DNA from: an uncultured Acetobacteraceae bacterium
Lineage (GTDB): Bacteria; Pseudomonadota; Alphaproteobacteria; Acetobacterales; Acetobacteraceae
Reading direction: 5' to 3'
NCBI GenBank assembly: GCA_964250925.1
Contig: CAXUHU010000003.1
Span: 25,327 to 89,326, forward strand
DNA: 64,000 bases
Shown here: in pieces, positions 5 through 18,948 of the stretch
Numbering within the stretch: position 1 is the stretch's first letter
How the letters are laid out: each line of letters opens with the position of its first letter
Program-made: the position numbers and the translations under genes
Notes under the pieces: generated by a model
Told to the model about the DNA's origin: nothing
Database searches by the model: none
Seen by the model: the letters and a program-made list of their open reading frames with translations, nothing else

Positions 5-931
5 CTAAGGTCCCGTCGGGGCGCCGAGCAGCCGGCCCAAACCATCCTCCAGCACCGTGGCCGCCGCCAGGCCGAGCAGCGCCCGCGCCCGCGCCGGGGA
101 ACCCACCGAACGCCGTATGTCGCCCGAACGTCCAGGACCGTGGCCGAGCGGCATGTTGGTCCTGCACAGGCGGCCCAGCGTCTCAGCCAATGTCAGCACC
201 GAGGTCTCCCGCCCGGTGCACACGTTGCATACCCAGGCGCCTGGCGCACGGCCAAGATGCGCCATGGCACCCACCAGATGGGCTACCACGTCGGCCACGT
301 AGATGAAATCGCGCGTCTGCCCGCCGTCGCCGTGAACGCTGACCGGGGCGCCGCGCGCCATGCGGTCCGCAAATATGGAGATTACGCCGCTATAGGGCGA
401 AGCCGGGTCCTGCCGCGGCCCGTAAACATTGAAGAAGCGCAGGCCGAAGCTGGGCACGCCGTGAACGCCCCACCCCACGGCGGCATGCAATTCGGAACCG
501 TATTTGTCCGCGCCGTAGGCGGTCTGCGGCGCGGGCGGCAGCCCCTCATGCGCCACTGCGTCGCCGACATTGCCATACACGGCCGCCGACGACGCATAGA
601 CCACAGGGACGCGCCGCGCGCGGCAAGCATCCAGCACGGCGATCGTCCCGGTCAGGTTCACCCGATGCGTGCCGGCCCAATCCTCATTGCCACGCGCCAC
701 CGACGCGATTGCGGCTAGATGAAACACGCCATCCGCCTCGTCCAGCCCCTTGGCCACAGCGCGCGCGTCGCAGATGTCTGCTACGACGAGCCGTGCCCGC
801 GGGTCCAGATTGTGCCGGTTCCCGGTGGACAGGTCGTCCAGCACGCGCACGACGTGACCCGCTTGCAGCAGCGCGTCGGTAAGGTGCGAGCCGATGAAGC
901 CTGCGCCGCCGGTGACGAGGATAGTCGGCAT
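5..931 (-). CDS. NAD-dependent epimerase/dehydratase (UDP-glucose 4-epimerase-like)
   Basis: ILVTGGAGFIG Rossmann motif, YGADK (YxxxK) catalytic motif, RFFNVYGPRQ; start taken at ATG 931. Confidence 0.9.
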   Translation of the reverse strand: MPTILVTGGAGFIGSHLTDALLQAGHVVRVLDDLSTGNRHNLDPRARLVVADICDARAVAKGLDEADGVFHLAAIASVARGNEDWAGTHRVNLTGTIAVLDACRARRVPVVYASSAAVYGNVGDAVAHEGLPPAPQTAYGADKYGSELHAAVGWGVHGVPSFGLRFFNVYGPRQDPASPYSGVISIFADRMARGAPVSVHGDGGQTRDFIYVADVVAHLVGAMAHLGRAPGAWVCNVCTGRETSVLTLAETLGRLCRTNMPLGHGPGRSGDIRRSVGSPARARALLGLAAATVLEDGLGRLLGAPTGP

Positions 932-1045
932 ACGGCTGTCTCCGCTCGGTCGCTTAGCGCAACATCCTGCCATGAAATGCCGCGACATCAAAATTGCGTC
1001 AGACCGCGCTTTACCGCGGGGCAGGGCCGCCGGTAGAAGCGACCC

Positions 1046-2395
1046 ATGGCAGCACACGCGACCGCAGACAGCCAGGCCTGTGCCGTTATCCTCGCGGCCG
1101 GCCTGGGCACGCGGATGAAGTCGGCCTTACCCAAGGCTGCCCATGCCATCGCTGGCCAGCCGATGCTGCGCCACCTGCTGGACGCCGCCGAACAGGTTTT
1201 CGCGCGCGTTGCCGTGGTGGTCGGCCCCGAGATGAGGTCGCTTGCCAAGCTGGCCGCGCCGCACCCCACGGCCATTCAGCACGACCGCCTGGGTACGGCG
1301 CACGCCGCGCTGTGTGCCGCAGATTTTTTCGGCCACGGCGAGGTGGCTATCCTGTTTGCCGACAACCCGCTGATCCGCGCCGAAACCCTGGCGCGGCTGG
1401 TGGCCGAGCGGCGGGCCGGCGATGCGGGGCTGGCGCTGATGGCCATGCGCCCCGCCGACCCTGCCCGTTACGGCCGGCTGGTGGAGGCGGCGGGCGAACA
1501 CGGGCCCACCATCACCCGCATCGTCGAATGGGCCGACGCCAGCGAGGCCGAACGAGCCATCCCGCTGTGCAACGCCGGTGCGCTGTGTGGCCCCGCGGAC
1601 CGCCTGCTCGGCTGGCTGCGCCAGATCAGGCCAGACAACGCAAAGGGCGAATACTACCTGACCGACCTGGTGCGGCTGGCCGTGCGCGACGGCGCGCGCG
1701 TCATCGCCGTCCAAGCGCCGGAAGACGAGTTGCGCGGCATCAATGCGCGGTCCGAACTGGCTGCGGCCGAGGCGGTGGTGCAGCATCGCCTGCGCCAGGC
1801 AGCAATGGCTGGCGGCGCGACGTTGACCGCGCCGGAGACCGTATTCTTCAGCCACGACACACAGCTTGGCCCCGACACGGTGGTGGGTCCGCACGTGGTG
1901 TTCGGCCCCGGCGTGCGTGTGGACGGCCCGGCCGAGATACGGGCGTTCAGCCATCTCGAAGGCGCCCACGTGCAGGCCGGCGCGGTGGTCGGCCCCTATG
2001 CCCGCCTGCGGCCCGGCACTGTGGTGGGGCCGGGGGCCCATGTCGGCAACTTCGTTGAGCTGAAGGCGGCGACGTTGGGCGCCGGCGCCAAGGCGAACCA
2101 CCTCAGCTACCTGGGCGACGCGGCCATCGGTGCCGGCGCCAACATCGGCGCCGGCACCATCACCTGCAACTACGATGGTTTCGACAAGCACCGCACCATC
2201 ATCGGCGAGCGTGTGTTCGTGGGATCGGATTCGGTGCTGGTGGCGCCTGTGACGGTGCATGACGGCGCGTTCGTGGCGGCCGGCAGCGTGATCACGCAGG
2301 ATGTTCCGCAGGACGCGATGGGGTTCGGCCGCGCGCGTCAAGTTAACGCGCCCGGCCGCGCTGCCGCCTTCCGCGCGACACGGAGCAAGACATGA
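1046..2395 (+). CDS. glmU: Bifunctional UDP-GlcNAc pyrophosphorylase / glucosamine-1-P N-acetyltransferase
   Basis: VILAAGLGTRMKS, GEYYLTD, hexapeptide repeats, NYDG; adjacent to glmS. Confidence 0.97.
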   Translation: MAAHATADSQACAVILAAGLGTRMKSALPKAAHAIAGQPMLRHLLDAAEQVFARVAVVVGPEMRSLAKLAAPHPTAIQHDRLGTAHAALCAADFFGHGEVAILFADNPLIRAETLARLVAERRAGDAGLALMAMRPADPARYGRLVEAAGEHGPTITRIVEWADASEAERAIPLCNAGALCGPADRLLGWLRQIRPDNAKGEYYLTDLVRLAVRDGARVIAVQAPEDELRGINARSELAAAEAVVQHRLRQAAMAGGATLTAPETVFFSHDTQLGPDTVVGPHVVFGPGVRVDGPAEIRAFSHLEGAHVQAGAVVGPYARLRPGTVVGPGAHVGNFVELKAATLGAGAKANHLSYLGDAAIGAGANIGAGTITCNYDGFDKHRTIIGERVFVGSDSVLVAPVTVHDGAFVAAGSVITQDVPQDAMGFGRARQVNAPGRAAAFRATRSKT

Positions 2396-2411
2396 GGACG
2401 TGCCAATTATT

Positions 2412-2480
2412 AGAAGTCCTTGGTTTCTTTTCTTCAGAAAACAAAGTTTTTCTTTCTGAAGAAAGAAGCGAAGACTTTTG
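2412..2480. repeat. AT-rich imperfect palindromic intergenic repeat, copy 1
   Basis: Arms AAGTCCTTGGTTTCTTTTCTTCAGAAA and TTTCTGAAGAAAGAAGCGAAGACTT are near reverse complements; a related copy lies at 46578-46660. Confidence 0.75.
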
Positions 2481-2498
2481 TTTGTTCGGGCTTCGCTG

Positions 2499-4325
<1,827 letters not shown>

Positions 4326-4348
4326 CAGCCGGCCTGCATCTCCACTTC

Positions 4349-4411
4349 TGTTCCGGACAATTAAGTCCGCTAGTCGCGTCGAAAATCGGCTACTTACGCA
4401 AAAGTCGGCTA
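4349..4411 (+). repeat. glmS-proximal transposon end with three closely spaced TnsB-type sites
   Basis: AAGTCCGCTA (4363-4372), AAATCGGCTA (4383-4392), AAGTCGGCTA (4402-4411); period 19-20 bp. Confidence 0.85.
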
Positions 4412-4665
4412 GTATGTGGCCGGGTGTTGCGGCCAACGTTACCGGCGAGCGACTTGTTCAGCAGCTGGACAACGAACTCGGTTCGGTGATGACGATCGAG
4501 GCGGTCTCGCAGGCTATGTTCAGCGGCAGATACGTCTCCGCCGTCAGCGCCGACGGCACTTCCACAACGGGCTTGCTCGGTATCAGGTAGCAGCCGCCAC
4601 CATGCGCGACGCGCGGTGAGCGCCGCTATCGACGGGCAGTTTTGCGCCTTGGTAAAGTCGGTGCC

Positions 4666-5601
4666 ATGTCCGAGTCTGCTCACCCATTTGATCATCCTAA
4701 ATACGGCTTCTTGCTGGGTGTTCTTGGGCTGTGTGGTGTGGGGCTATCATTAATGGCGCCTGACCTCTTTTGGTTTGGCGCAGTTATTTGTTACGCGTGC
4801 GCCATCTTAACGTTAGTTCGCTATTGGCCTGATCTCTTCAGAGTCAAGCAAAGAATTGCAACTCTAGATGTAGGAGGAGAAGCAGCGGTGGTTATCGTTG
4901 CATTGATGTTGGAAGTGTTTCTGCCCAGCTATTTGATATATGTTCGATATCAAAAGCCTACTAGGCTTCTGGCCTCCGTTGAATCATCGTTAACTGTTCA
5001 ACCGGCCGTGAAAACAGCTGAGTCGTTGGACAATTATGACTTTAATGAAATTCTTCCAGGCTACGCATATTTTATGGCAGCTAGAATAAACCAATTGAAC
5101 GGTCGAATAAAGCAGCCCATTTTCGATATAGAATTCGGCGCTATAAAAATAGTTTTTTATGCCACAACGAGCAACATGTTCCGCTTTTCTGTCATAGACT
5201 CCCATAACGACGAACATTCTACAGACATAAACCTTGGTTACGATGGTGTTAGAGTTGGAGTGCCAAAACTGTTATTTTTTGAGGTTGGGTCTGGGACAGA
5301 CTATTCAGTCATGAGAGTCTGTTCGGATGGAGTTGAGGTCTCCCGTAGAACCTTTTCGTTTCCGATAGACTTTGGCGATAGAAGGCTTAAGTCTTTTGGC
5401 GGTTCAGATTTCGACATGACTGAAATGATTTCGTTTTCAAGCACACTAGACAGATTGACTTTGAAGACCGTATCGCAACGCGCAGCAACGATGCTTCATT
5501 TACATACAAGTCCTCTAGCTGTAGTCCCTCCAACCCGAAGGCAGCCAAAGCAGCCAGGAGAAATGTCGCTGCAAACGTCCCCCTTGCAAGCTTGCTGGTG
5601 A
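4666..5601 (+). CDS. Low-GC hypothetical membrane protein (N-terminal TM helices, beta-rich C-terminal domain)
   Basis: Long ORF with clearly lower GC than its flanks; about three hydrophobic segments; 3' end probably extended by the 4-bp duplication at 5501-5508. Confidence 0.7.
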   Translation: MSESAHPFDHPKYGFLLGVLGLCGVGLSLMAPDLFWFGAVICYACAILTLVRYWPDLFRVKQRIATLDVGGEAAVVIVALMLEVFLPSYLIYVRYQKPTRLLASVESSLTVQPAVKTAESLDNYDFNEILPGYAYFMAARINQLNGRIKQPIFDIEFGAIKIVFYATTSNMFRFSVIDSHNDEHSTDINLGYDGVRVGVPKLLFFEVGSGTDYSVMRVCSDGVEVSRRTFSFPIDFGDRRLKSFGGSDFDMTEMISFSSTLDRLTLKTVSQRAATMLHLHTSPLAVVPPTRRQPKQPGEMSLQTSPLQACW

Positions 5602-5746
5602 TAGACGCCTCCGTTTTCTCTAATCCGTGCTCCTTTAGTCGTTCAGCAAGTTGTGTGTAGGTCACACCAGCTCTCTTCATTTCCGCTTTGAGAAATCTGC
5701 TGGCCTTGCCAGCAAGCTCTTTCTCCGTTTCCGCCCACGACACCAT
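5387..5746 (-). CDS. DUF6471-like small HTH-type DNA-binding protein (C-terminally extended)
   Basis: FLKAEMKRAGVTYTQLAERL...SKLARGTFAATFLL pattern; GGAGG RBS before ATG 5746. Confidence 0.75.
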   Translation of the reverse strand: MVSWAETEKELAGKASRFLKAEMKRAGVTYTQLAERLKEHGLEKTEASITSKLARGTFAATFLLAALAAFGLEGLQLEDLYVNEASLLRVAIRSSKSICLVCLKTKSFQSCRNLNRQKT

Positions 5747-5780
5747 CCCCCTCCGGCTGGTGGGGAGCCGGGAGTGGAAA

Positions 5781-7469
5781 TTAGGCCAGCAGGCCGTGCA
5801 ACGCGGCCACTACTTGCGCCCCTTCGCCGACGGCTGCCGCCACGCGCTTGGTCGATCCGGCCCGTACGTCGCCGATCGCGAAGATCCCCGGCACGCTGGT
5901 CTCCAGCGGTGACGGCTGGCGGCCGGCGGCCGTCCATACGTCGGCGTCGGCCTGGGCGCCGGTGATGACGAAGCCTTTCGCATCGATGGCCACAGTGCAT
6001 CCGGACAGCCAGTCGGTGTTCGGATCGGCGCCGATGAACAGGAACAGGTGCCGCAACGGACCGGTCCAGACGCCGCGCGTGTCGCGATTGCGGAAGCTCG
6101 CCTCGGTCAGGCCGCCCTCGGCATCGCCCGCCAGCGCCGCTATCTCGGTCCGCGTGTGTATGGTGACGTTCGGCAGCGCGGCGATGCGGTCGATCAGGTA
6201 GCGCGACATGGACGCTTCCAGCCCGTCTGCACGCACCACAAGGTGCAGGTGACGTACCCTGGGTGCCAGGAATGCCACCGCCTGGCCGGCGGAATTGCCC
6301 GCGCCGACCAGGGCGACATCCTCGCCGGCACACAGCTTGGCTTCGACCGGCGAGGCCCAGTAGGACACGCCCGCCCCGTCGAACAGGTCGAGGTTGGCGA
6401 TGTCCGGACGGCGGTAGCGTGCGCCGGACGCGATCACCACGCTCCGCGCCCGTACGCTGCTGCCGTTCGTCAGATGGAGCAGGAAGGGATCGCCCGCCCG
6501 GCGAGCCTGGCCACCGCACTCGAGGCGCTGCACCATGAGCGGAACGGCGATCTCGGCGCCGAATTTCTGCGCCTGGGTGAACGCGCGCGCCATCAGCGCC
6601 AGGCCGGTGATGCCGGTGGGGAAGCCCAGGTAATTCTCGATTCGGGCCGAGGCGCCGGCCTGCCCGCCGAACGCCCTCGCCTCCAGCACGATCACCGACA
6701 GCCCCTCGGAAGCGGCATACACGGAAGCGGCCATGCCGCCAGGTCCGGCGCCCACAATCGCCACGTCGTAAACGCGCGTGGGATCGAGCTCCGGCGTGAT
6801 CCCCAGACAGGCGGCGACCTCCGCCTCGCTCGGTCGCTTCAGCACCTGGCCGCTAGGACAGACCACCACCGGTAGGTCGTCCGCATGCAGGCCGAGGCGC
6901 TCGGCCAACGCCAACCCGTCGGCCTCCGCGTCCAGCACCGTCATCGGATAGCCGTTGCGCGCGAGGAAGCCTTCGATGCGGGTCAGCGCAGGCGATTGGG
7001 GGCGGCCCACCAGCACCGAGCCGGCGCTGCCCTGGGCGATCAGCGACGTACGTCGCAGGATGAAGGCGCGCATCAGCATCTCGCCCAATTCCGCCGAGCC
7101 GATCAGCAGCGCGCGCAGATGGGCGGCGTCGAACGACACGGCCTCGCAGCCGCCCGCATCCGCGCGTCCCTCAGCCAGCGCGGGACGGCCGGCGAGCTGG
7201 CTGACCTCGCCGGTGACGGCGCCCGGTCCGTGGCGGGTGATGACGGTGCCGCTCCCATCCGGCCCGCCGCGGCTGACCACCACGTGGCCGGACAGCACGA
7301 GAAAGGCAGGCGCGTTGCGCTCGCCAACGGCGAACAGGGTTTCCCCGGCCGCATAGCGTGTGGGCTGGCCGGAGGCGAAGCGACGCGCGACGTCGATCTG
7401 CGCAGGCGTCAGGACTGGAAACATCTGTGCCGAGCGGTCGCCCTGCGACCCGGGGCTGGCGGATATCAT
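5781..7469 (-). CDS. Cyclic-nucleotide-binding domain plus thioredoxin-reductase-like FAD oxidoreductase
   Basis: N-terminal cNMP-binding domain (GEVSQLAGRP), then IVGAGPGG, SARIENYLGFP, VGAGNSAGQ, AIGDVRAGS. Confidence 0.9.
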   Translation of the reverse strand: MISASPGSQGDRSAQMFPVLTPAQIDVARRFASGQPTRYAAGETLFAVGERNAPAFLVLSGHVVVSRGGPDGSGTVITRHGPGAVTGEVSQLAGRPALAEGRADAGGCEAVSFDAAHLRALLIGSAELGEMLMRAFILRRTSLIAQGSAGSVLVGRPQSPALTRIEGFLARNGYPMTVLDAEADGLALAERLGLHADDLPVVVCPSGQVLKRPSEAEVAACLGITPELDPTRVYDVAIVGAGPGGMAASVYAASEGLSVIVLEARAFGGQAGASARIENYLGFPTGITGLALMARAFTQAQKFGAEIAVPLMVQRLECGGQARRAGDPFLLHLTNGSSVRARSVVIASGARYRRPDIANLDLFDGAGVSYWASPVEAKLCAGEDVALVGAGNSAGQAVAFLAPRVRHLHLVVRADGLEASMSRYLIDRIAALPNVTIHTRTEIAALAGDAEGGLTEASFRNRDTRGVWTGPLRHLFLFIGADPNTDWLSGCTVAIDAKGFVITGAQADADVWTAAGRQPSPLETSVPGIFAIGDVRAGSTKRVAAAVGEGAQVVAALHGLLA

Positions 7470-7589
7470 GGCCTTGGCACGACCTGGCGCGCGGGCCGGT
7501 CAGGTTCCCTTTGGCGTAATTGCATGGTGACGTCCCCCGATTGGTCGGTCCGCATCTTGGCCGCAGGCCGGCGTCGATCCAAGCCAAGC

Positions 7590-7879
7590 CTAGCCTTGAG
7601 ACACGCTCTCCGCGTCGCGGAAGCCGACCGGCTGGGCGTGGAGTTGCAAAACCTGTCCGCAATCCGATCGGGGTCGTACGTCGTGCCGGGCTGGATCTGC
7701 CCCGCGACGGTCACGGTCGCGACGTGAATGCCCTCGGGCGCCAGCTCCTTATGGAGCGTCTGCGCCAGACTCCGCAGGCCCGCCTTGCCGATCGCCAGCG
7801 ACGCGACGGCCAGCCAGCCGGTCGGGTCCAGCGCGAGGCCGCCGCCGACGATGACCGCCCGCTTCGTGTCGGGGCTCAT
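7590..7879 (-). pseudogene. SDR oxidoreductase remnant (internal deletion plus frameshift)
   Basis: N-terminal KRAVIVG joined directly to the C-terminal half (GGLALDP...IGKAGLRSLAQTL...GIHVATVTV); frameshift near 7647. Confidence 0.7.
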
Positions 7880-8544
7880 GCGCCCGCTTCGGCTGGCGAA
7901 GCGGCTGGCGCATCGCGCAGCAGCGCCGCGCCGATCCGCGCCCCCATGCCCTGCCTGTAGGCGAGCTGGACCAGCAGCATGCCCAACGGCTCGGTGTATC
8001 GCGCCAGACTTAACGGCCCGGCATCGACGCCGTCGGCATCGATTTCGGCCACCAGGCCGAGCACCAGCGCACGAGCCGCCGCGTCATCGCCGCAGACGAA
8101 CACGCTGGGTCGGACGCTTCCAAGCTGGGTAGATGGCGAGTGCAGCACCTCGGCGAAGGGCGGGATGGCCTTCACCACGCGGGCGCCCGGCGCCGCGCGC
8201 GCCACCTCCTCGCCCGCCGAGGTGGACGTGCCGATCTCCAGCCCGCTCATGTCGGGCTTCAGCGGATTGGTCGCGTCCCACACAACGCGATCCGCCAGCG
8301 CCGGCGCCACTCCCCGCACCGCATCCAGCGTGACACCCCAAGGTGTGGCGAGGACGACCACATCACCGAACCGCGCGGCTTCCTCCGGCGAACCGGATCG
8401 GGTGTCGTCGCCGATCAGCCGCGCGGCCGCCTCCAGGCCGTCCTGGCTGCGGGAAAAGCTGACCACGATCCGGTGCCCTCTTGCAGCCAGCCGCTTGCCG
8501 ATGCCCGTGCCGACGTTGCCGGCACCAATGATGCCGATGTTCAC
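7876..8544 (-). CDS. NADP oxidoreductase, F420-dependent NADP reductase family
   Basis: MNIGIIGAGNVG, VVLATPW, DATNPL, VVKAIP. Confidence 0.85.
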   Translation of the reverse strand: MNIGIIGAGNVGTGIGKRLAARGHRIVVSFSRSQDGLEAAARLIGDDTRSGSPEEAARFGDVVVLATPWGVTLDAVRGVAPALADRVVWDATNPLKPDMSGLEIGTSTSAGEEVARAAPGARVVKAIPPFAEVLHSPSTQLGSVRPSVFVCGDDAAARALVLGLVAEIDADGVDAGPLSLARYTEPLGMLLVQLAYRQGMGARIGAALLRDAPAASPAEAGA

Positions 8545-9014
8545 GGCCGTGTTCCCAGCAGCAGGGGCGCCATGGCCGGCGCCTGCCAGGTCTCATACAT
8601 CAGCGGGTTCAGCCCGCCGACCCAATTCTCCACCAGCTTGCCGTCGTCGAAGCGCATCAGGTGCAGTTCGCAGAAGGTGAAGCGTTTGTTGGTGGCGGCG
8701 ATCCCGTTCAGCGATCCGGTATTGTCCGCCGATGCCTCGAACCGGGCCATGACCCTGCCGTCGACGAGTGCCGCGATATCCTTGATCTCCATCCGCCCGT
8801 TGCTGAACGCGGTGCCCAATGTGGCGCCCAGCACGCGGCCATACGCGTCGCGGCCGACGATCTTCCCGTCCGGCTTCAGGCCCGTATCGACGACCACGTG
8901 TTCCGCCACCACGTCCGCCATCGCAGCCGGATCGCCACCGCCCAGCACGCCCTCGACGAAGCGCCGGGCCGCGGCGAGATTGCGGGAAACGGTATCAGGA
9001 TCGACCGGCATCAT
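8541..9014 (-). CDS. SnoaL-like ester cyclase (NTF2 fold)
   Basis: ARRFVEGVL...NTGSLNGIAATNKRF...RFDDGKLVENW; start uncertain (9014 or 9065). Confidence 0.75.
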   Translation of the reverse strand: MMPVDPDTVSRNLAAARRFVEGVLGGGDPAAMADVVAEHVVVDTGLKPDGKIVGRDAYGRVLGATLGTAFSNGRMEIKDIAALVDGRVMARFEASADNTGSLNGIAATNKRFTFCELHLMRFDDGKLVENWVGGLNPLMYETWQAPAMAPLLLGTRP

Positions 9015-9084
9015 CCGGGATGTCTCCAACGTTGCGGGATGAGCGCGGGCGATCGGAACGGCCATGACCTTGGTCTGGACGGGG

Positions 9085-9909
9085 TCATTGCGATGCGAGC
9101 TCCTGGGCCACGGCGGCGGCATTCATCTCGATCAGCCCGTCGAGCGGCCAGCCGTCCCGCCCCTGGCGGGTCTCCATGACGAGGCGCGCCATCTCGCCCG
9201 GAGCGACCCCGCCATCCCGAGCCACGGCAGCGACGCGCTTGCGGAAGTCTTGGATGTAGCGGCGCTGCATTTCGAACAGGCTACGGTCGCCTTGCGCGCC
9301 ATGGCCGGCGAATACCACCTTGCAGCCACCGAATCTTGCCTCCATCACATCCAGCTGCTCGAGCCAACGCCTGGTGCCGTGTTCGGCCAGCCAAGGGTGG
9401 CAGCCGTTGTAGATGAGGTCGGAGGCGATCAGCGCGTCGGCGCCGGGGACGTGGACCGCCGTGTTGTCCAGCGCGCTCTCGAAACCACCCAAATCTAGAA
9501 GCCGCAGCTCCATCCCAGCGAGGTCCAGCACCGCATCAGGTCCCAGGGGATGGTCGGGAAGCGCATCATCCTTCGGGTAGTCGTCGCCGTAGACCGGGGT
9601 CCACGCCTCGCGCTTCTGCGCCCGGGTCGCGCGGATGCCCGCGATGGTGGGCTCGGTGGCGAACACGGGGATGGCACCGCGCCCCGCCAGCACCAGCGGC
9701 AAACCGTTGAAGTGGTCAGGATGGGGATGGGTGACGATCACCGCGGCCAGCTTCTTGCCGAGCGCGTCCAGCCGGGCGATCAGCCTCCGCGTCGACGAGA
9801 TGACGAAGTGCGTATCCACAAGCACGACCTCGCGCTCTCCCTCGATCAGAAAGGCGTTCACGAAGAACGTGTCGGCGTCAGCCGCGACGGCGTGGATCCG
9901 CGGCGTCAT
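9085..9909 (-). CDS. MBL-fold metallo-hydrolase
   Basis: THPHPDH metal motif, ASDL, AGHG; ATG overlaps the upstream stop (ATGA). Confidence 0.88.
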   Translation of the reverse strand: MTPRIHAVAADADTFFVNAFLIEGEREVVLVDTHFVISSTRRLIARLDALGKKLAAVIVTHPHPDHFNGLPLVLAGRGAIPVFATEPTIAGIRATRAQKREAWTPVYGDDYPKDDALPDHPLGPDAVLDLAGMELRLLDLGGFESALDNTAVHVPGADALIASDLIYNGCHPWLAEHGTRRWLEQLDVMEARFGGCKVVFAGHGAQGDRSLFEMQRRYIQDFRKRVAAVARDGGVAPGEMARLVMETRQGRDGWPLDGLIEMNAAAVAQELASQ

Positions 9910-10829
9910 GTCGACACCTTGGTGGCAAGCGTGTCGCGCCCCAGCAGCAGCGCCCCGGCTGCGCCGACCACCACCCGCACCAGCTTGGCGGGCTCGAGCT
10001 CGTCGGGCAGCACCGTCATCGTGCCGCCGGTCGTGGTGACGTAGACGGCGTGGCGGTCCGCCGGCCCGCGGCCGAACGCCACCGCGGTGGCGCCGAGCAT
10101 GCCGTGCGCCGCCCCGGCCAGCGTAGTCCGCGAGCCGTCGGCCGCCAGCCGCACGAGAGAGCGCGCCGGGTGGGTGGCGATGTAGAGCGCGCCCGCCGTG
10201 TCGATGGCGAAGTCGTCGGCGCGCAGCCGCTCGGCATAGACTTCGAGCGGGCCTGCCATCCCGCCCGCGATCGGCGCCCGGTAAATCGTGTCGGTGCCGG
10301 TGACCGATATGTAGGCGTGCCCGGCGAAGATCTTGACTCCGTTCGCGCCGGGCGTGCCGGAGGCGTCGGCGGGTGCCAACCGGGGATCGGCAAGCCAGGT
10401 TGCGACGGTGCCATTTGCGGGATCGACCACGTGGATCAGCCCGGCGACCGAGTCGGCGACCAGGAAGCGCCCGCCCAGCGGCGTCACACCGTTGAGGAAC
10501 GCCGCATCGGGCAGGCTTGCCAGGTGCGAGACGACGCCATCCGCCGCCACACGCCAGATCACGCCTGGGCGCTGTCCCGGCGTGCCGCCGCTCACGATGA
10601 GCGATCCGTCCGCGGCAAAGGCAAGCCCCGCCACGGGCGTGTCGAACCGCGCGAACGGCGTGATCGTCCCGGTTGCCGGATCGACGCGGACGACGGCCCT
10701 GTCGGTGTGCAGCGTGACGAAAATCATCCCGGCCGGGTCGACTGCGATGTTCTCGACGAAGCTGCCTTTCGGCCACGTCGCCACGACCGTGGCTGGGGCG
10801 AAGGCGATGTTGCCGCCATCATGCTGCAT
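9906..10829 (-). CDS. SMP-30/gluconolactonase-like beta-propeller protein
   Basis: ENIAV, FLNGVT, ANGVK, ADDFAID blade motifs. Confidence 0.8.
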   Translation of the reverse strand: MQHDGGNIAFAPATVVATWPKGSFVENIAVDPAGMIFVTLHTDRAVVRVDPATGTITPFARFDTPVAGLAFAADGSLIVSGGTPGQRPGVIWRVAADGVVSHLASLPDAAFLNGVTPLGGRFLVADSVAGLIHVVDPANGTVATWLADPRLAPADASGTPGANGVKIFAGHAYISVTGTDTIYRAPIAGGMAGPLEVYAERLRADDFAIDTAGALYIATHPARSLVRLAADGSRTTLAGAAHGMLGATAVAFGRGPADRHAVYVTTTGGTMTVLPDELEPAKLVRVVVGAAGALLLGRDTLATKVST

Positions 10830-10868
10830 GGCCGGCCTCCTTTCGGGCGGCTGCGATATCGAACGGCA

Positions 10869-11291
10869 TCACCAGTCGAGCCCTGCGGCGGCTAGCTCGT
10901 GCAGTAGCGTCACCGTCGCCCAGCGCTCAACGATCTTGCCGTCCTCGACGCGCCACAGCACGAAGCCGTGGAACTCGCCAGGCTGGCCGGTTTGGGGGTC
11001 CGTCGCGATCCACACGTTGCGCACGGCCACCTTGTCGCCCTCGGCTACCGCGTCCCGCACCTCGACACGCAAATCGGGCATCATGCGGTGCATCGCCTGC
11101 ATCATCGCCCTGTCGCCCGCGACACCGGTCGGCTTGCCGCCTGGGCCGTCGTGGTCGAGAAATCCGGGCGCCATGTTGCGGTCGATGGCGGCCAGGTCCC
11201 GGCGGTTCACGAAATCTTCAAAGTGCCCGAGCACCAGCGCCTTATTGGCGCGGGCGAGATCGGCTGCGACGCGCGTCTGTTCGGACGTCAT
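10869..11291 (-). CDS. SnoaL-like ester cyclase
   Basis: FVNRRDLAAIDR...AEGDKVAVR...RVEDGKIVERW. Confidence 0.8.
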   Translation of the reverse strand: MTSEQTRVAADLARANKALVLGHFEDFVNRRDLAAIDRNMAPGFLDHDGPGGKPTGVAGDRAMMQAMHRMMPDLRVEVRDAVAEGDKVAVRNVWIATDPQTGQPGEFHGFVLWRVEDGKIVERWATVTLLHELAAAGLDW

Positions 11292-11409
11292 TCGAGGTTG
11301 GCCCAGAAGTCCATTAACGGCTCCCACTATCCATTCGGTCGTGTGTAGACGTACGCTCCATCAGTCAAATCGAATGGCTTGATGATGGTCATCGACAGCG
11401 TCGATACGG

Positions 11410-12372
11410 TCAAACTCGGGTTCGCCCGACCGAGGCGACCAGTTCGCGGAGCCAAGCCTGCGCCGGGTCCGCCGTGTTGCGACGGTGCCATGCCATCCGG
11501 ACGTCGTAGCCGTTGGACCGCAGCGGCACGTCGCAGACCGCAAGTCCGGCCGCGTCGGCGCAGTTAAGGGCAAGGCGGCGCGGGAGCGCCGAGACGGCGC
11601 GAAAGCCGTGCAGCAGGAAGGGCACCGCCAGGAAATGCGGCGTCGTGTAGATGACCATGCGGGTCCGGCCGGCCGCTTCCAGCAGCTCGTCGACGTGTCC
11701 GAACGGCTCGCCACGCAGCGAGACGAGGATGTGCGGCAACGCCACGTAATCATCGAGGGATAGCGGCGGCGCGACACCGCATGCTTGCGCGTCGAACAGG
11801 CACACGAAGGTCTCGTGATAGAGCGTGGCGGCGTCCAGGGTGCTGTCCACGTCGGGGAAGTGCCCCAGCGCCAGATCGATGGCGCCCGATGCCAGCAGGT
11901 CCGCGGCGCCCTGCCGCTCGACCGAGCGCGCGATGACCCGGATGTTGGCGGCATCCCGCCGCATCGCCTGCAGCACGTCCTGCATGACGGCGGCCTCCGC
12001 CTGGTCCGACAGCCCGATGCGGAAGGTTCGGCGGTCCGTGGCCGGGCTGAACCCGCGCGCGCTGAACACTTCCGCCCGCAGTTCGGCGAGGATGCGCGCG
12101 ACCGGTGGCACCAGGTCGATGGCGCGGCTGGTCGGCTGCAAGCCGGTCGGTGTGCGCACGAGCAACGGGTCGTCGAACATGTCCCGCAGCCGCGAGAGCG
12201 CGTTGCTCATGGCGGGCTGGCCGACCCCCATGCGCCGCGCGGCGGCGGTGACACTGCGCTCGGCCATCAGCATGTCGAACGCGACGAGCAGGTTGAGATC
12301 GAACCGGCGCAGGCTGTCCGTGTCGCTGGCGTCCTGTCCCACCCGGCTTGCTCCCCGACGACCCTCGCTCAC
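11410..12372 (-). CDS. LysR-family transcriptional regulator (NodD/DntR-like)
   Basis: FDLNLLVAFD...SVTAAARR...QPAMSNALSRLR HTH plus substrate-binding domain. Confidence 0.93.
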   Translation of the reverse strand: MSEGRRGASRVGQDASDTDSLRRFDLNLLVAFDMLMAERSVTAAARRMGVGQPAMSNALSRLRDMFDDPLLVRTPTGLQPTSRAIDLVPPVARILAELRAEVFSARGFSPATDRRTFRIGLSDQAEAAVMQDVLQAMRRDAANIRVIARSVERQGAADLLASGAIDLALGHFPDVDSTLDAATLYHETFVCLFDAQACGVAPPLSLDDYVALPHILVSLRGEPFGHVDELLEAAGRTRMVIYTTPHFLAVPFLLHGFRAVSALPRRLALNCADAAGLAVCDVPLRSNGYDVRMAWHRRNTADPAQAWLRELVASVGRTRV

Positions 12373-12614
12373 GACAGGAAGGCATCAGGGAGCACATCCA
12401 CGCAAGAAACGTGTGACGGCCCGGCTACTCTGTAAACGCAGCCGAGCCCCGCGGCGTGTCCACAGCCACACGCAGCTTCGCGACCTCGTTGCGGGGTCAA
12501 CGCGGCGATGATCGTCGGCGCGCGCATGGCCGAGATGGCCGGCAACTTCGTGCGCAACCTGCGCGAAGGCCGCGTGCGGCTGATGGCGGGCGTGGCCACC
12601 ACGGGAGCGGCGGC

Positions 12615-13037
12615 GTGACGCCCTCCATCCCAGCGATGGCGGCCGCCACCGGCAGCGTGCTGCTCGTGCTGCAAGTGGGGCTCGGTCTGGCGGTCAGCGG
12701 CGCGCGTGGCCAGGCCGGCGTGTTTATCGGCGCCGGCGGCAACGCCGGGCTGGAGCGTGCGACGCGGCGCCACGCCAACCTGGCCGAGAACGCCGGGCTG
12801 GTGCTGGCCGGCCTCACCCTGCTCGAACTGTCCGGGCGCTGGCCGACGCTTCTGCTGGTACTGTGCCCCACCTTCATCGCACTGCGCCTGTGCCACGCCG
12901 CCGGCCTGTCGCGTGCCGACACCAACAACCCGCTCCGCCTGGTCGGTGGCGCCGGCACCTACCTGCTCGGCCTGGTGCTGGGCGGCGCGCTCGCCTGGCT
13001 GGGCGGCACTGCGCTGCTGACCGCTACCCATGGCTGA
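12615..13037 (+). CDS. MAPEG family membrane protein
   Basis: RRHANLAEN motif, RLCHAAGL, four hydrophobic helices; start uncertain (GTG 12615 or ATG 12636). Confidence 0.8.
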
Positions 13038-13433
13038 ACCGGCGGCCATACTCGACCAGGACTCGGCAATTCTGGTGACCGGGGCTACGGGCAAGACCGG
13101 CGGCCACACGGTGAAGCTGCTGTTGGCGCGCGGCCGCACAGTGCGCGCCTTCGTGCACAGGCGGGGCCACCGCTCGGAGCTGGCGGCCGCACAGGGGGCG
13201 GAGGTCGTCGAAGGCGACCTACCGTGCGGCCGTCGCGCAGGCCGGCCAGGTTCGAGGCGACCCGCGACACCACCTTCGCGCGGACAGCCGTCGAGATCGC
13301 GCTGCTGGCGGTAAAAGGGGCGGCGGTGCCGGGCTATCGGACGCCTGCCACCGCTTACGGCGCCGACTTCATCCTGGGGTTCGACGGCGTGCGGCGGACC
13401 GACGTGGACGGGCGATCGCAGGTGGACGTGTAG
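13030..13433 (+). pseudogene. Chimeric remnant: NmrA-like N-terminus joined to a saccharopine-dehydrogenase-like C-terminus
   Basis: [11 protein letters not shown]...GAEVVEGDL stops abruptly; another frame ends with GYRTPATAYGADFILGFDGVRRTDV. Confidence 0.6.
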
Positions 13434-13445
13434 GGCAGCCTGCCT

Positions 13446-13778
13446 TCACGCGGCGCCTTTGCCACCCGCCTGATCGGCATGCCAAGCGGCATACGGCGAG
13501 TTCGCCACCATGCGCCTGTTGTAATCCGGTGCGCCGTCGTCCCACCACGCCGCGCCGCGCTCTCCAAGCGCGCGCTTTGCGGCATCCACACGGGCGCGTG
13601 CCGCCGCGAGTGCCTCTCCGTCGCCCCTCGCTGCGCGCACGGCCCGCCGCGCTGCCATCAGCTCGCGCACGAGCGCGTCATGGCGTTCCGGCGGGAGCGT
13701 CGGGTTGGCGAGGCGCCACAGCCTCCCGCGCACGACGAAGTAGCGGCCGTCCGGGGTGCGCAGGTGGACCTCAGGCAA
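13446..13778 (-). CDS. Conserved hypothetical protein (TPDGRYFVVRGRLWR family)
   Basis: RTPDGRYFVVRGRLWR...GERGAAWWDDGAPDYNRRM; TTG start inferred. Confidence 0.7.
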   Translation of the reverse strand: MPEVHLRTPDGRYFVVRGRLWRLANPTLPPERHDALVRELMAARRAVRAARGDGEALAAARARVDAAKRALGERGAAWWDDGAPDYNRRMVANSPYAAWHADQAGGKGAA

Positions 13779-13977
13779 GAAGCAACGCGCCGGCGGGCGG
13801 ATCCTTCTTCTCGCCACGCGCCACGATCCGCAATGCGCCGTCCGGCAACGGCCTCTGCAGCCGGCGTGCATCTGTCCAGGGCGTCGCCAACCACGTGTCG
13901 GCTTCTTCACTCGTGGTGAGGATGACGGGCATCGCCTTGGGATGGACGCTGGCGACCTCGCGATTCGGCTCGGTCGT
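13771..13977 (-). pseudogene. C-terminal fragment of an SOS response-associated peptidase (SRAP)
   Basis: TTEPNREVASVHPKAMPVILTT...LQRPLP, preceded directly by an in-frame TAG; N-terminus missing. Confidence 0.7.
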
Positions 13978-14278
13978 CTACGGAGCCGGTAAAGGTAGGA
14001 GTAGGTCGTCGGACACGATCGCTGCAGGGCGGTGATGCCCGCATCACAAATTGTCCCAGATACGCGCGATAACCCTCGATAGGCCTTTCGTGACACCGAA
14101 GATCATCCGCTCGTTCCGCGACGGCCTGGTCATGGCATCCCCAGTAATGACCCCCGACGGCGACGTATCACGATCTCGATCCGCGGAACAACGGACGATC
14201 GACGGTGCTCGTGGACGATGGATCAGTACACCGATATCGGGTATGTTCGGCCGCGACAACCCACTAACGCCAGTCTTC

Positions 14279-14396
14279 ACTAGCCGACTTCATTGTTCAA
14301 CCGTCTATACGGCTCAGTCCTTGAAGTAGCCAACTTTTGATTATGAAAATAAGCAACTCCGCCGACCTGACTAACAGACTTTATTAGTCCGGAACA
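14279..14396 (-). repeat. glmS-distal transposon end with widely spaced TnsB-type sites
   Basis: Minus strand reads TGTTCCGGACTAATAAAGTC, CAAAAGTTGGCTA (14327-14339) and ACAATGAAGTCGGCTAGT (14279-14296; 16/18 identical to 4357-4374). Confidence 0.85.
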
Positions 14397-14531
14397 ACTT
14401 CGATGCGCCGGCACTCTCCACAATGGGAATCGGCCGGCGGGCATCGCACCCGTTCGGACGGCCGTGCAATGGCTCCGTGCTTGCCAGCCTTGCCGATTGC
14501 TGAAATATGACCTGGGCTGGCCTGGGGCGAC

Positions 14532-16376: not shown

Positions 16377-18311
16377 ATGCTGCCGTTCGATCTTCAGGGC
16401 GGGTTGCCGCTCTCGGCCGCGCGCGCCCTGATGGTCGGCGCGGTGCTCTCCACCTTTGGAGCATTGGTCTTCCGGGTCTTGGTCGCGCCCAGGGCCTGTG
16501 CGCCCATGACGCCGGAGGCGGTGCGCGTCGGCAAGCAGCGCCTGCTCGTCGTCTCGCAGGTCAGCGCCCTGGCCGGGCTACTCGCAGCCATTCTGTGGCT
16601 ATACCTGCAAGCGGCAGACATGGCCGATGCGGAAGGCGCCGCCCGGGTCCTGGCAGCCCTTATCCCTGTCCTGACCCGCACCCTATTCGGACACGTTCTC
16701 GGCGCGCAGTTCGCCGCACTTCTCGCCGCCTCGGCGCTGATCGGCGTGGTCGATGTGGCTTGGCGCCAAAGAGCTGCCTTGGGCATGACGACCCTCGCCG
16801 TCGCCTTGCAGGCGGGCCACAGCCACGCCTACGCGATGTATGGCGGGGCAAGCGTGTTGCTGGGCTGCGACGTCGTGCACCTTCTGGCTGCAGGGGCCTG
16901 GCTGGGCGGCCTGGTGCCGCTGCTGCTCTGGGTGCGGTGTGCGCCGCCCAAGACGGGTGCCAGTGCCGCGCGCCGGTTCTCGCCCCTCGGTCAAGGGTGC
17001 ATCGCCGCACTGGTCCTGTCGGCGACCGTCCAAGGCTGGATACTCGTCGGAACCGTTCCCGGACTGGTCGGCACCGCCTATGGCTGGATGGTGCTCGTCA
17101 AGATCGGCCTGTTCGCGGTGCTGCTGGGCTTTGCAGCCGCCAACCGCTACCGCTTTGCACCAGCGTTGCTGCACGACAGGCCCGTTACGGCGAAGACGGT
17201 GCTGGTGCGCAGCATCGCTCTTCAGACAGGGTTCGCAATCGCCATCGTCGCTGCCGCCAGCGTGCTGAGCGCGCTGCCGCCCGCCATGCACGAACAGCCG
17301 GCCTGGCCTTTCCCCGAACGCTTCAGCTTGGCCGCCGTAAACGAGGATCCCGACTTCCTGCGCGAAGTGGTGCAGGCGGGCGTGCTGCTCGCTGGCGCCG
17401 GGCTGGTTTTGACATTGTGCGTGAGCGCGCGCCGCTTCCGGCTGACGGCTTGCGCCCTGGCGGCTGTTTCCGTTTGGTTCGAGCTGCCGCATCTCGACCT
17501 GCTGCTCGTGACCGCCTACCCCACCAGCTTCTATCGTTCGCCCACGGGCTTCGCAGCCGCCGCCATCGTGAGCGGGCAATCAGTCTATGCAGCGCATTGT
17601 GTCGTCTGCCACGGCAGGGAGGGGCGTGGCGACGGAGTTGCGGCCAAGACCTTGCCGGTGCCGGCAGCCGACCTGACAGCGCCGCACCTCTGGATGCATA
17701 GCGATGGAGAGCTGTTCTGGTGGCTTGCCCACGGCATACTGACACCGGGGGGCGTGCAGGCGATGCCCGGCTTGGCCACGGTGCTGGATGACGACCAGCG
17801 TTGGGCGGCCATCGACTTCATCCGGGCACGCAACGCCGGCGGCACCCTGCGTGCGACAGGGGGGTGGACGCCGCCGCTCTTGGCGCCCGGGTTCGACCTG
17901 AGTTGCGGCACGACCTACATCGCGCTGTCCGGGCTGCGGGGGCGGTTCGTGCTGTTGCGATTCAGTCAGGCGCCACTCAGCCAAGTGGGGTTCGGCCACG
18001 AGCCGGATCGGCCCCGCATCGGCACCGCGGTCAGCATCCTGGCCATGCCTGCCGGGCAGGCTGCACCGCCCGACGACTGCGTAAGCACCGACGAGACCGT
18101 GGCGCCTGCCTACGCCATCGTGTCGGGCGTGGACGTGGCAAGCTTGCCCGGGACGGAGTTCCTGATCGATGAGCGGGGCTGGCTGCGTGCTGTGCACCGG
18201 GCGGGGACAGCACCCCTGTGGAGCGCTGCGGCGTTGCAGGCGGAAATCCGCTTGTTGCGCGCGCATCCCGTGGCTGACGCTGCCGTAGCGCCGATGAAGA
18301 TGCCGATGTGA
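16377..18311 (+). CDS. CopD-family membrane protein fused to cytochrome c and a degenerate thioredoxin-like domain
   Basis: GHSHA, HLLAAGAWLGGL, LVKIGLF..N RY CopD motifs; CVVCHG heme site; C-terminal FLIDERGWLR. Confidence 0.85.
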   Translation: MLPFDLQGGLPLSAARALMVGAVLSTFGALVFRVLVAPRACAPMTPEAVRVGKQRLLVVSQVSALAGLLAAILWLYLQAADMADAEGAARVLAALIPVLTRTLFGHVLGAQFAALLAASALIGVVDVAWRQRAALGMTTLAVALQAGHSHAYAMYGGASVLLGCDVVHLLAAGAWLGGLVPLLLWVRCAPPKTGASAARRFSPLGQGCIAALVLSATVQGWILVGTVPGLVGTAYGWMVLVKIGLFAVLLGFAAANRYRFAPALLHDRPVTAKTVLVRSIALQTGFAIAIVAAASVLSALPPAMHEQPAWPFPERFSLAAVNEDPDFLREVVQAGVLLAGAGLVLTLCVSARRFRLTACALAAVSVWFELPHLDLLLVTAYPTSFYRSPTGFAAAAIVSGQSVYAAHCVVCHGREGRGDGVAAKTLPVPAADLTAPHLWMHSDGELFWWLAHGILTPGGVQAMPGLATVLDDDQRWAAIDFIRARNAGGTLRATGGWTPPLLAPGFDLSCGTTYIALSGLRGRFVLLRFSQAPLSQVGFGHEPDRPRIGTAVSILAMPAGQAAPPDDCVSTDETVAPAYAIVSGVDVASLPGTEFLIDERGWLRAVHRAGTAPLWSAAALQAEIRLLRAHPVADAAVAPMKMPM

Positions 18312-18324
18312 TGGGTGGTTGGCG

Positions 18325-18948
18325 ATGAAGACGAGACGGGCGGTCCGCCGGCGGGAGCGCGATCGCAAAGCCTTCACACGCGCCTGGTTCGGCGTAGCGG
18401 CCATTCTGCTCCTAGCCGGCACGTTCTGGCTGACGGTTCCGGGCCAACGGAAGCAGGGTGGCATCGGCGGACCGTTCACGCTGATGGCCGATGACGGCTA
18501 CCTCCGAACGGAACGAAGCTTCCCCGGGAAGTACCTTGCCGTCTATTTCGGCTACACACACTGCCAGGATGTTTGTCCCGCGACGCTCAACACGCTGGCG
18601 GCCGCACTGGCGCGATTGGGCGGCGCGGCCGAACGCGTGCAACCACTGTTCATCACCGTCGATCCGTCGCGCGACTCGCCTGCGGTGCTGCGCCGTTTCG
18701 TCGCGGGCTTTGCACCCAACCTGATGGGACTGACCGGAACGCCGGACCAGTTGGCCAAGGTCGAGCGAGGGTATCGCGTGGTGAGTGTTCCGCATGTCGG
18801 AGCTGCGCCGGCCAGCTACGTGGTGGACCACAGTTCGGTAATCTACCTGATCGACCCTGACGGCGCCTTTGTCGCACCGATACCGGCCGATGCCTCCGAA
18901 ATGGTGATGGCGCAAGCGATCGCGCGCTACGTCAGGACGCCGTCTTGA
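18325..18948 (+). CDS. SCO1/SenC copper chaperone
   Basis: FGYTHCQDVCP (CxxxC), ITVDP, VDHSS. Confidence 0.92.
   Translation: MKTRRAVRRRERDRKAFTRAWFGVAAILLLAGTFWLTVPGQRKQGGIGGPFTLMADDGYLRTERSFPGKYLAVYFGYTHCQDVCPATLNTLAAALARLGGAAERVQPLFITVDPSRDSPAVLRRFVAGFAPNLMGLTGTPDQLAKVERGYRVVSVPHVGAAPASYVVDHSSVIYLIDPDGAFVAPIPADASEMVMAQAIARYVRTPS

Follow-up and report, generated by a model that had tools for sequence, protein, structure and literature searches.

A Tn7-like island with intact ends and no transposition genes behind glmS in an uncultured Acetobacteraceae bacterium

What is the 10-kb block of DNA that lies directly behind glmS, an essential gene, in an uncultured Acetobacteraceae bacterium, and can it still move? 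We analyzed a 64,000-nucleotide stretch (the window) of a 3.57-Mb draft genome, which comprises 175 contigs and is 93% complete. A first-pass annotation, made from the letters alone, had described the block as a cargo-only derivative of Tn7, either stranded after losing its tns genes or mobilized in trans by a helper. We find that positions 4349-14396 (10,048 bp) are probably a stranded, non-autonomous Tn7-like island at glmS, inserted by machinery of the TnsABC+TnsD type and devoid of transposition genes. We read it as stranded and non-autonomous because it encodes no transposition protein and because the assembled genome contains nothing able to mobilize it.

The element was delimited by its ends. 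Its proximal terminus, TGTTCCGGAC (4349-4358), directly follows the left ACTTC, and its distal terminus, GTCCGGAACA (14387-14396), directly precedes the right one (Table 1). These TGT...ACA termini form an inverted repeat that matches at 10 of 10 positions. The flanking direct repeat is exactly 5 bp long, and the letters adjoining it differ on both sides. Inside the termini are inward-facing AAGTCGGCTAGT-like sites of 13 bp, three packed into 65 bp at the proximal end and three to four spread over 118 bp at the distal end, where they begin 15, 37 (a weak copy), 60, and 106 nucleotides from the tip. The repeat unit has the consensus AAAGTCGGCTAGT, and every copy points inward. The degenerate motif AAGTYSGCTAS matched four times in the window (0.05 expected), each time within one of the two ends and facing inward. 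A genome-wide search that allowed up to two mismatches found the 13-mer AAAGTCGGCTAGT clustered only at the element ends, at 3 + 3 sites. We predict that these repeats are TnsB-type binding sites, distributed asymmetrically between the ends. A compact end beside glmS and a spread far end are the Tn7-R/Tn7-L layout in its canonical orientation. The ends themselves are present as described; their function is predicted from their letters.

The element also sits where Tn7 would. Insertion of Tn7 takes place ~20 bp after the glmS stop codon and produces a 5-bp duplication, and the TnsD-binding region of Escherichia coli attTn7 covers 36 bp, from +23 to +58 (PMC2918618). In the window, the glmS stop codon TAG occupies 4323-4325, after a conserved protein C-terminus (DQPRNLAKSVTVE). 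Between the end of the gene (4325) and ACTTC (4344-4348) lie 18 nucleotides, and the center of the duplication (4346) is 21 nucleotides past the stop. With 4346 set to 0, the first base of the stop codon falls at +23. The last ~36 nucleotides of glmS (4288-4323) would be the counterpart of the +23 to +58 region, and TnsD would presumably bind there. The fixed distance from conserved C-terminal coding sequence and the compact end facing glmS are those of the TnsD/glmS (attTn7) pathway. The letters and coordinates quoted in the first-pass annotation for ACTTC, the termini, and the glmS end were all in place. Its assignment of a Tn7 derivative to the glmS attTn7 site likewise held for the ends, the 5-bp duplication, and the 21-nucleotide spacing.

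To gauge chance, we counted perfect 10-bp inverted repeats that begin with TGT, are flanked by identical 5-mers, and lie 0.5-30 kb apart in the whole genome. Two pairs were returned, the glmS element and a pair on contig C33. The latter carries neither subterminal repeats nor any other transposon feature and is an evident chance case. Taken alone, the terminal repeat and duplication are not significant. The element is non-random because of its Tn7 position behind glmS and its subterminal repeats.

No transposition gene was found in the element. Pfam analysis of all plausible interior open reading frames (ORFs) revealed cargo only, with no TnsA, TnsB, TnsC, or TnsD/TniQ. The stretches left unexplained (4349-5800 and 12350-14396) were scanned with Pfam as X-masked six-frame translations, and no Tns domain was detected at E <= 1; the first-pass annotation had suggested such a scan for Tns remnants. 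Six-frame searches of the whole draft genome gave no match to TniQ, TnsA_N, or Mu-transpos_C. The Pfam-verified TnsABCD set of congener G017 was used for tblastn searches, which yielded no match in the genome at E <= 0.01 and only noise in the element alone. As a positive control, the TnsA model detected seven loci in 5 of the 26 genomes of the genus. Autonomous Tn7-like elements encode TnsB, TnsC, and TniQ/TnsD, and usually TnsA; this element encodes none of them. The earlier statement that no interior ORF resembles a Tns protein was thus borne out by Pfam on ORFs, six-frame Pfam, and tblastn. So was the description of a cargo-only Tn7 derivative, given the ends, the duplication, the attTn7 position, and the absent tns genes.

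Ends matching those of the element were sought elsewhere, with exact patterns rather than profiles in the large-scale searches. Pattern searches found no further copies in the assembled genome, and exact end patterns had no match in the collection genome_contigs. One end-pattern scan of metagenome_contigs was empty, and a looser pattern returned five chance matches there, none with subterminal sites. Among 400 genomes of the class, a looser end pattern matched at the control rate only. When a two-site pattern was run on 120 genera of the family, the only genome to match was the one that contains the window, and blastn of both ends against PLSDB plasmids found no match. The first-pass annotation had proposed searching genome and metagenome for the ends and for tns genes; the search showed the ends to be single-copy in the assembled genome and turned up neither a cognate element nor tns genes in that genome. 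Several copies and/or a helper would mark a lifestyle like that of miniature inverted-repeat transposable elements. Here there is a single copy, and the 93%-complete assembly contains no helper. Outside the window, at G000:C5:8450-8730, we noted a tandem repeat with a unit of ~60-70 nucleotides (including CGTTCAAGTCGGCTAGAGCAATCTCACGCAGACCGGAACGGTCGT) and a stretch of N in its middle, which has GTCGGCTAG in common with the Tn7-type sites by chance.

Tn7-like elements do occur in the genus. The seven TnsA loci in five congeners, including the elements of G017 and G001, carry other end repeats. G017 has a full tnsA-tnsB-tnsC-tnsD operon directly behind glmS (L025, G017:C5:211801-225761, 699-7285), in an element whose own TGT end (TGTGAAGATTTAATATAGTCC) is accompanied by four repeats. 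This operon points at glmS, and tnsD is its gene closest to the glmS-side end, which is the reverse of the gene order in Tn7. A second Tn7-like element of G017 lies in a comM/YifB-like gene (L037, G017:C3:1-12000, ~8400-8589), as in the Tn6022/AbaR situation. It was considered as a cognate and rejected: its terminal AAGTTAGCTAGA faintly resembles the sites described here, and its other repeats are unrelated.

The interior of the element is a patchwork (Table 1). It combines an orphan segment of low guanine-cytosine (GC) content with three gene fragments and a redox/hydrolase cluster whose probable regulator is a LysR-family protein. Outside the low-GC segment, GC content is ~70%, like that of the host. 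Signs of decay are seen near both ends, in the form of avidin-like, short-chain dehydrogenase (SDR), and NmrA fragments, a truncated DUF6471 tail, and a break in GC content. The avidin-like fragment scored 22.6 bits against PF01382 (cut-off 24, E = 1.4e-4). It occupies the position where tnsA would be expected and is probably a deletion scar just inside the transposon end. Homology of the DUF6471 gene to congeners ends near 5505, at the start of the low-GC segment; this composition break suggests a recombination junction that replaced the 3' end of DUF6471. The orphan ORF of the low-GC segment and the DUF6471 gene converge, with an overlap of ~215 nucleotides.

Two interior genes were traced as leads to a Tn7 context, and both were set aside. 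The single homologue of the orphan ORF (64% identity) was found beside valS in another genome, a non-Tn7 context. The RGRLWR gene is multi-copy in the genus and not Tn7-specific, and in G001 it does not adjoin a transposon end.

Table 1. Positions in the window of the element's boundaries, predicted end sites, interior genes, and upstream genes.
Feature	Position	Strand	Remarks
glmU	1046-2395		upstream of glmS
glmS (glutamine-fructose-6-phosphate aminotransferase)	2478-4325	+	ORF; C-terminus PRNLAKSVTVE
Left target-site duplication copy	4344-4348		ACTTC
glmS-proximal, Tn7-R-like end	4349-4413	+	terminal TGTTCCGGAC and three packed, predicted TnsB-type sites
Proximal TnsB-type sites (predicted)	4362-4374; 4382-4394; 4401-4413		TAAGTCCGCTAGT; AAAATCGGCTACT; AAAGTCGGCTAGT; spacing 20 and 19 bp
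Avidin-family N-terminal fragment	4471-4590	+	~40 amino acids, ended by stop; Pfam PF01382, weak
Orphan ORF	4642-5601	+	319 amino acids; no family match; in ~1-kb low-GC segment (38-52%)
DUF6471 helix-turn-helix protein	5387-5746	-	Pfam E = 5.9e-23
Cyclic-nucleotide-binding domain + thioredoxin-reductase-like flavoprotein fusion	5781-7469	-	83% nucleotide identity to G018:C25
Short-chain dehydrogenase C-terminal fragment (probable)	7466-7879	-	weak NCBIfam SDR matches, E ~2e-3; no Pfam match
NADP oxidoreductase, F420-dependent-type family	7876-8544	-	82% nucleotide identity to G021:C111
SnoaL-like protein	8541-9122	-	
Metallo-beta-lactamase-fold hydrolase	9085-9909	-	274 amino acids from MTPRIHAV
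SMP-30/gluconolactonase-like beta-propeller protein	9906-10829	-	weak Pfam match; 83% nucleotide identity to G021:C111
SnoaL-like protein	10869-11327	-	
LysR-family regulator	11410-12372	-	88.6% amino acid identity to G021 orthologue
MAPEG-family membrane protein	12456-13037	+	divergent from LysR gene
NmrA-like N-terminal fragment, truncated gene	13030-13314	+	54 of ~298 profile positions
Small conserved protein	13446-13790	-	RGRLWRLANP motif; start approximate
glmS-distal, Tn7-L-like end	14279-14396	-	terminal TGTTCCGGAC (14396-14387, minus strand) and spread sites
Distal sites (predicted)	14382-14370; 14360-14348 (weak); 14337-14325; 14291-14279		AAAGTCTGTTAGT; weak site; AAAGTTGGCTACT; GAAGTCGGCTAGT
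Right target-site duplication copy	14397-14401		ACTTC

The cargo was then compared with the sister species G021. There, the LysR-SnoaL-SGL-oxidoreductase (F420) block is found on contig C111, 82-85% identical to that in the element, and glmU-glmS of the two species are 83.5% identical. The divergence of the cargo equals that of glmU-glmS; therefore, the cargo has been in the lineage as long as these housekeeping genes. In G021, the block is flanked by an acyl-CoA ligase gene, a GST gene, and a TetR-like gene and lacks Tn7-type repeats. These comparisons suggest that the cargo is host DNA taken up by the element and not freight of foreign origin. Compared with G021, the element has 1.28 kb of extra DNA (8619-9899) between the SMP-30-like and oxidoreductase genes, holding a SnoaL-like gene and the metallo-beta-lactamase-fold hydrolase.

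An empty site, which the first-pass annotation had proposed as a check, was sought by joining the two flanks and comparing them with 40 relatives, which matched only in the glmS part. Eleven congeners were read directly, and in each of them the sequence that follows glmS maps to a location of its own. Since the post-glmS DNA differs in these eleven congeners and the 40 relatives gave no flank match, the locus downstream of glmS is a hotspot of turnover in the genus. The first gene of the right flank (340 amino acids) is present in 24 of the 26 genomes of the genus and nowhere else adjacent to glmS; in closed or near-closed genomes, it is far from glmS or on another contig. Further along the right flank, a CopD/c-type cytochrome fusion followed by a SCO1/SenC copper chaperone (16377-18948, plus strand) separates the element from the core genes trpF, rpsA, cmk, and aroA.

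Public sequencing runs carry this organism at a depth of only 2-4x, and the resulting contigs are short. Contigs from different studies matched the element and its flanks at 98-100% identity. A contig in X2 spans the left junction (4329-4469), with two substitutions and a one-nucleotide insertion after 4358, and one in X24 spans the right junction (14226-14409). As these junctions occur in runs of different studies, the insertion is common to separate samples. At this depth, the runs showed occupied junctions only, and no joint skipping the element was seen.

These observations suggest a history. A Tn7-like element, using its own or borrowed TnsABC+TnsD, would have inserted once behind glmS, at a time when G021 had already split off but the sampled strains had not yet diverged. 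This insertion would have generated the ACTTC duplication. If the element carried tns genes, they may once have lain just inside the glmS-proximal end and may have been removed by deletions or replacements on that side. The LysR-controlled redox/hydrolase cluster would have entered by recombination with host DNA. The element would now be fixed, in a cell that lacks the transposase.

Some points weigh against this history. With no empty site at hand, the case for insertion by transposition consists of the 5-bp duplication and the anatomy of the element. The complete lack of Tns pseudogene remnants is also what would be expected had the element arrived without genes. The part missing from the 175-contig draft, or an unassembled plasmid, could harbor a helper. 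The termini and the duplication are still perfect, which is compatible with recent activity; on the other side, 30 intact nucleotides would also be expected at a between-strain divergence of ~1%.

The strongest rival holds that a cargo-only "mini" element was transposed in trans by a helper since lost or unassembled, and that it may still be mobilizable. The intact termini, subterminal sites, and duplication fit this account, as does the lack of any Tns remnant even at permissive thresholds. The genus does contain autonomous Tn7-like elements that target glmS (G017), mobilization in trans of elements with intact ends is accepted in the literature (PMC11837452), and a genome that is 93% complete in 175 contigs leaves room for a helper. 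However, the assembled genome yielded no helper, the element is single-copy, the G017 and G001 elements differ from it in their end repeats, and matching ends are absent from every collection searched. Several genes inside the element are truncated. The host-like composition of the cargo and the species-level divergence of its orthologues in the sister species are better explained by long residence than by arrival from outside. We therefore regard this account as unlikely.

A related proposal, that the element never had tns genes of its own in this lineage and represents a class of cargo-only Tn7-type satellites that rely on helpers and have been overlooked by gene-seeded surveys, strikes us as quite doubtful. 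If it were true, the intact ends would matter for future mobilization or for target immunity of the glmS site against cognate invaders. We lean towards stranding after loss of the tns genes because there is no helper and only one copy, the interior contains truncated genes and shifts in composition, the cargo matches glmS in age, and the insertion is present in independent samples. Of the two options offered by the first-pass annotation, the evidence leans to the stranded one; mobilization in trans, with neither helper nor second copy, is not favored and stands beside it as the lesser possibility.

Alternatively, the two ends may derive from different insertion events and have been joined by deletion, so that the unit never moved as one piece. 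The patchwork interior with its several junctions is in line with this, and tandem or nested Tn7-like insertions followed by deletions have been described at att sites (PMC11014353). However, the same 5-bp sequence at both ends marks a single integration event (chance ~1 in 1,000), and the two ends agree in their terminal 10 bp and in their site consensus, making joined ends very improbable. It is scarcely credible that there is no transposon here and that the inverted repeat and 5-bp repeat are chance matches around variable post-glmS DNA: the C33 pair, the missing empty site, and a post-glmS region that differs in every congener would allow it, but C33 lacks subterminal repeats, clusters of inward 13-bp sites, six to seven sites in all, are confined to the two ends (0.05 expected per window), and the insertion point fits Tn7 spacing behind glmS within a few bases.

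Read as a stranded island, the element can be compared with known systems. Like prototypic Tn7 and glmS-targeting Tn7-like elements that use TnsABC+TnsD, it has TGT...ACA termini, a 5-bp duplication, and an insertion point ~20 bp past the glmS stop, and each end bears several ~20-bp repeats, compact by glmS and spread at the far end (PMC2918618). Unlike them, it encodes no TnsA, TnsB, TnsC, or TnsD, and no other element searched had its repeat consensus, AAGTCGGCTAGT. Laboratory mini-Tn7 vectors similarly place two ends around a cargo at attTn7, but they are engineered and supplied with a helper plasmid, whereas this is a natural element without a known helper. Class 1 integrons are defective Tn402/Tn5053 derivatives within the wider TnsB/TnsC/TniQ group. 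They have lost tni genes, kept their inverted repeats, and depend on helpers, and they are widespread and multi-copy. The element described here differs from them in family and target choice and is single-copy.

Other parallels come from degraded Tn7-like elements. In cyanobacteria, partly degraded elements with intact ends have been reported, and their authors propose mobilization in trans (PMC11837452). These share intact cis-acting ends with our element, but they keep recognizable, damaged tns genes (PMC11837452), of which none remain here. A large survey of Tn7 cargo was seeded with hidden Markov models of core proteins (PMC8649781). Our example shows that the ends by themselves can reveal the boundaries of a transposon that escapes gene-based surveys, and that a Tn7 relic can carry metabolic genes of host-like rather than foreign character.

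The retained ends may also have a consequence for the host. In a related system, when an immobile mini-element with intact TnsB sites occupied the att site, new insertion fell from ~100% to ~2 x 10^-5 % (PMC11014353). By analogy, the retained TnsB-type sites may confer target immunity on the glmS attTn7 site against a cognate element.

The element belongs to an already documented class, the inactive Tn7-like islands at glmS (PMC11014353), and leaves the present picture of Tn7 biology unchanged. Among 203 closed genomes of Acinetobacter baumannii, 54 have an insertion behind glmS, only 21 of these are predicted to be functional, and the islands range from 1.9 to 25 kb (PMC11014353). Our element agrees with the inactive ones in size and situation, in its occupied att site, and in lacking essential tns genes; together with its Tn7-type ends, these are the features by which inactive, tns-less islands are defined (PMC11014353). 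It differs in host lineage and end family, in the full preservation of its two ends and of the duplication, and in its cargo, which encodes redox/hydrolase metabolism where the A. baumannii islands encode resistance. As such, it offers a clean example for estimating what share of att-site islands are dead relatives of Tn7.

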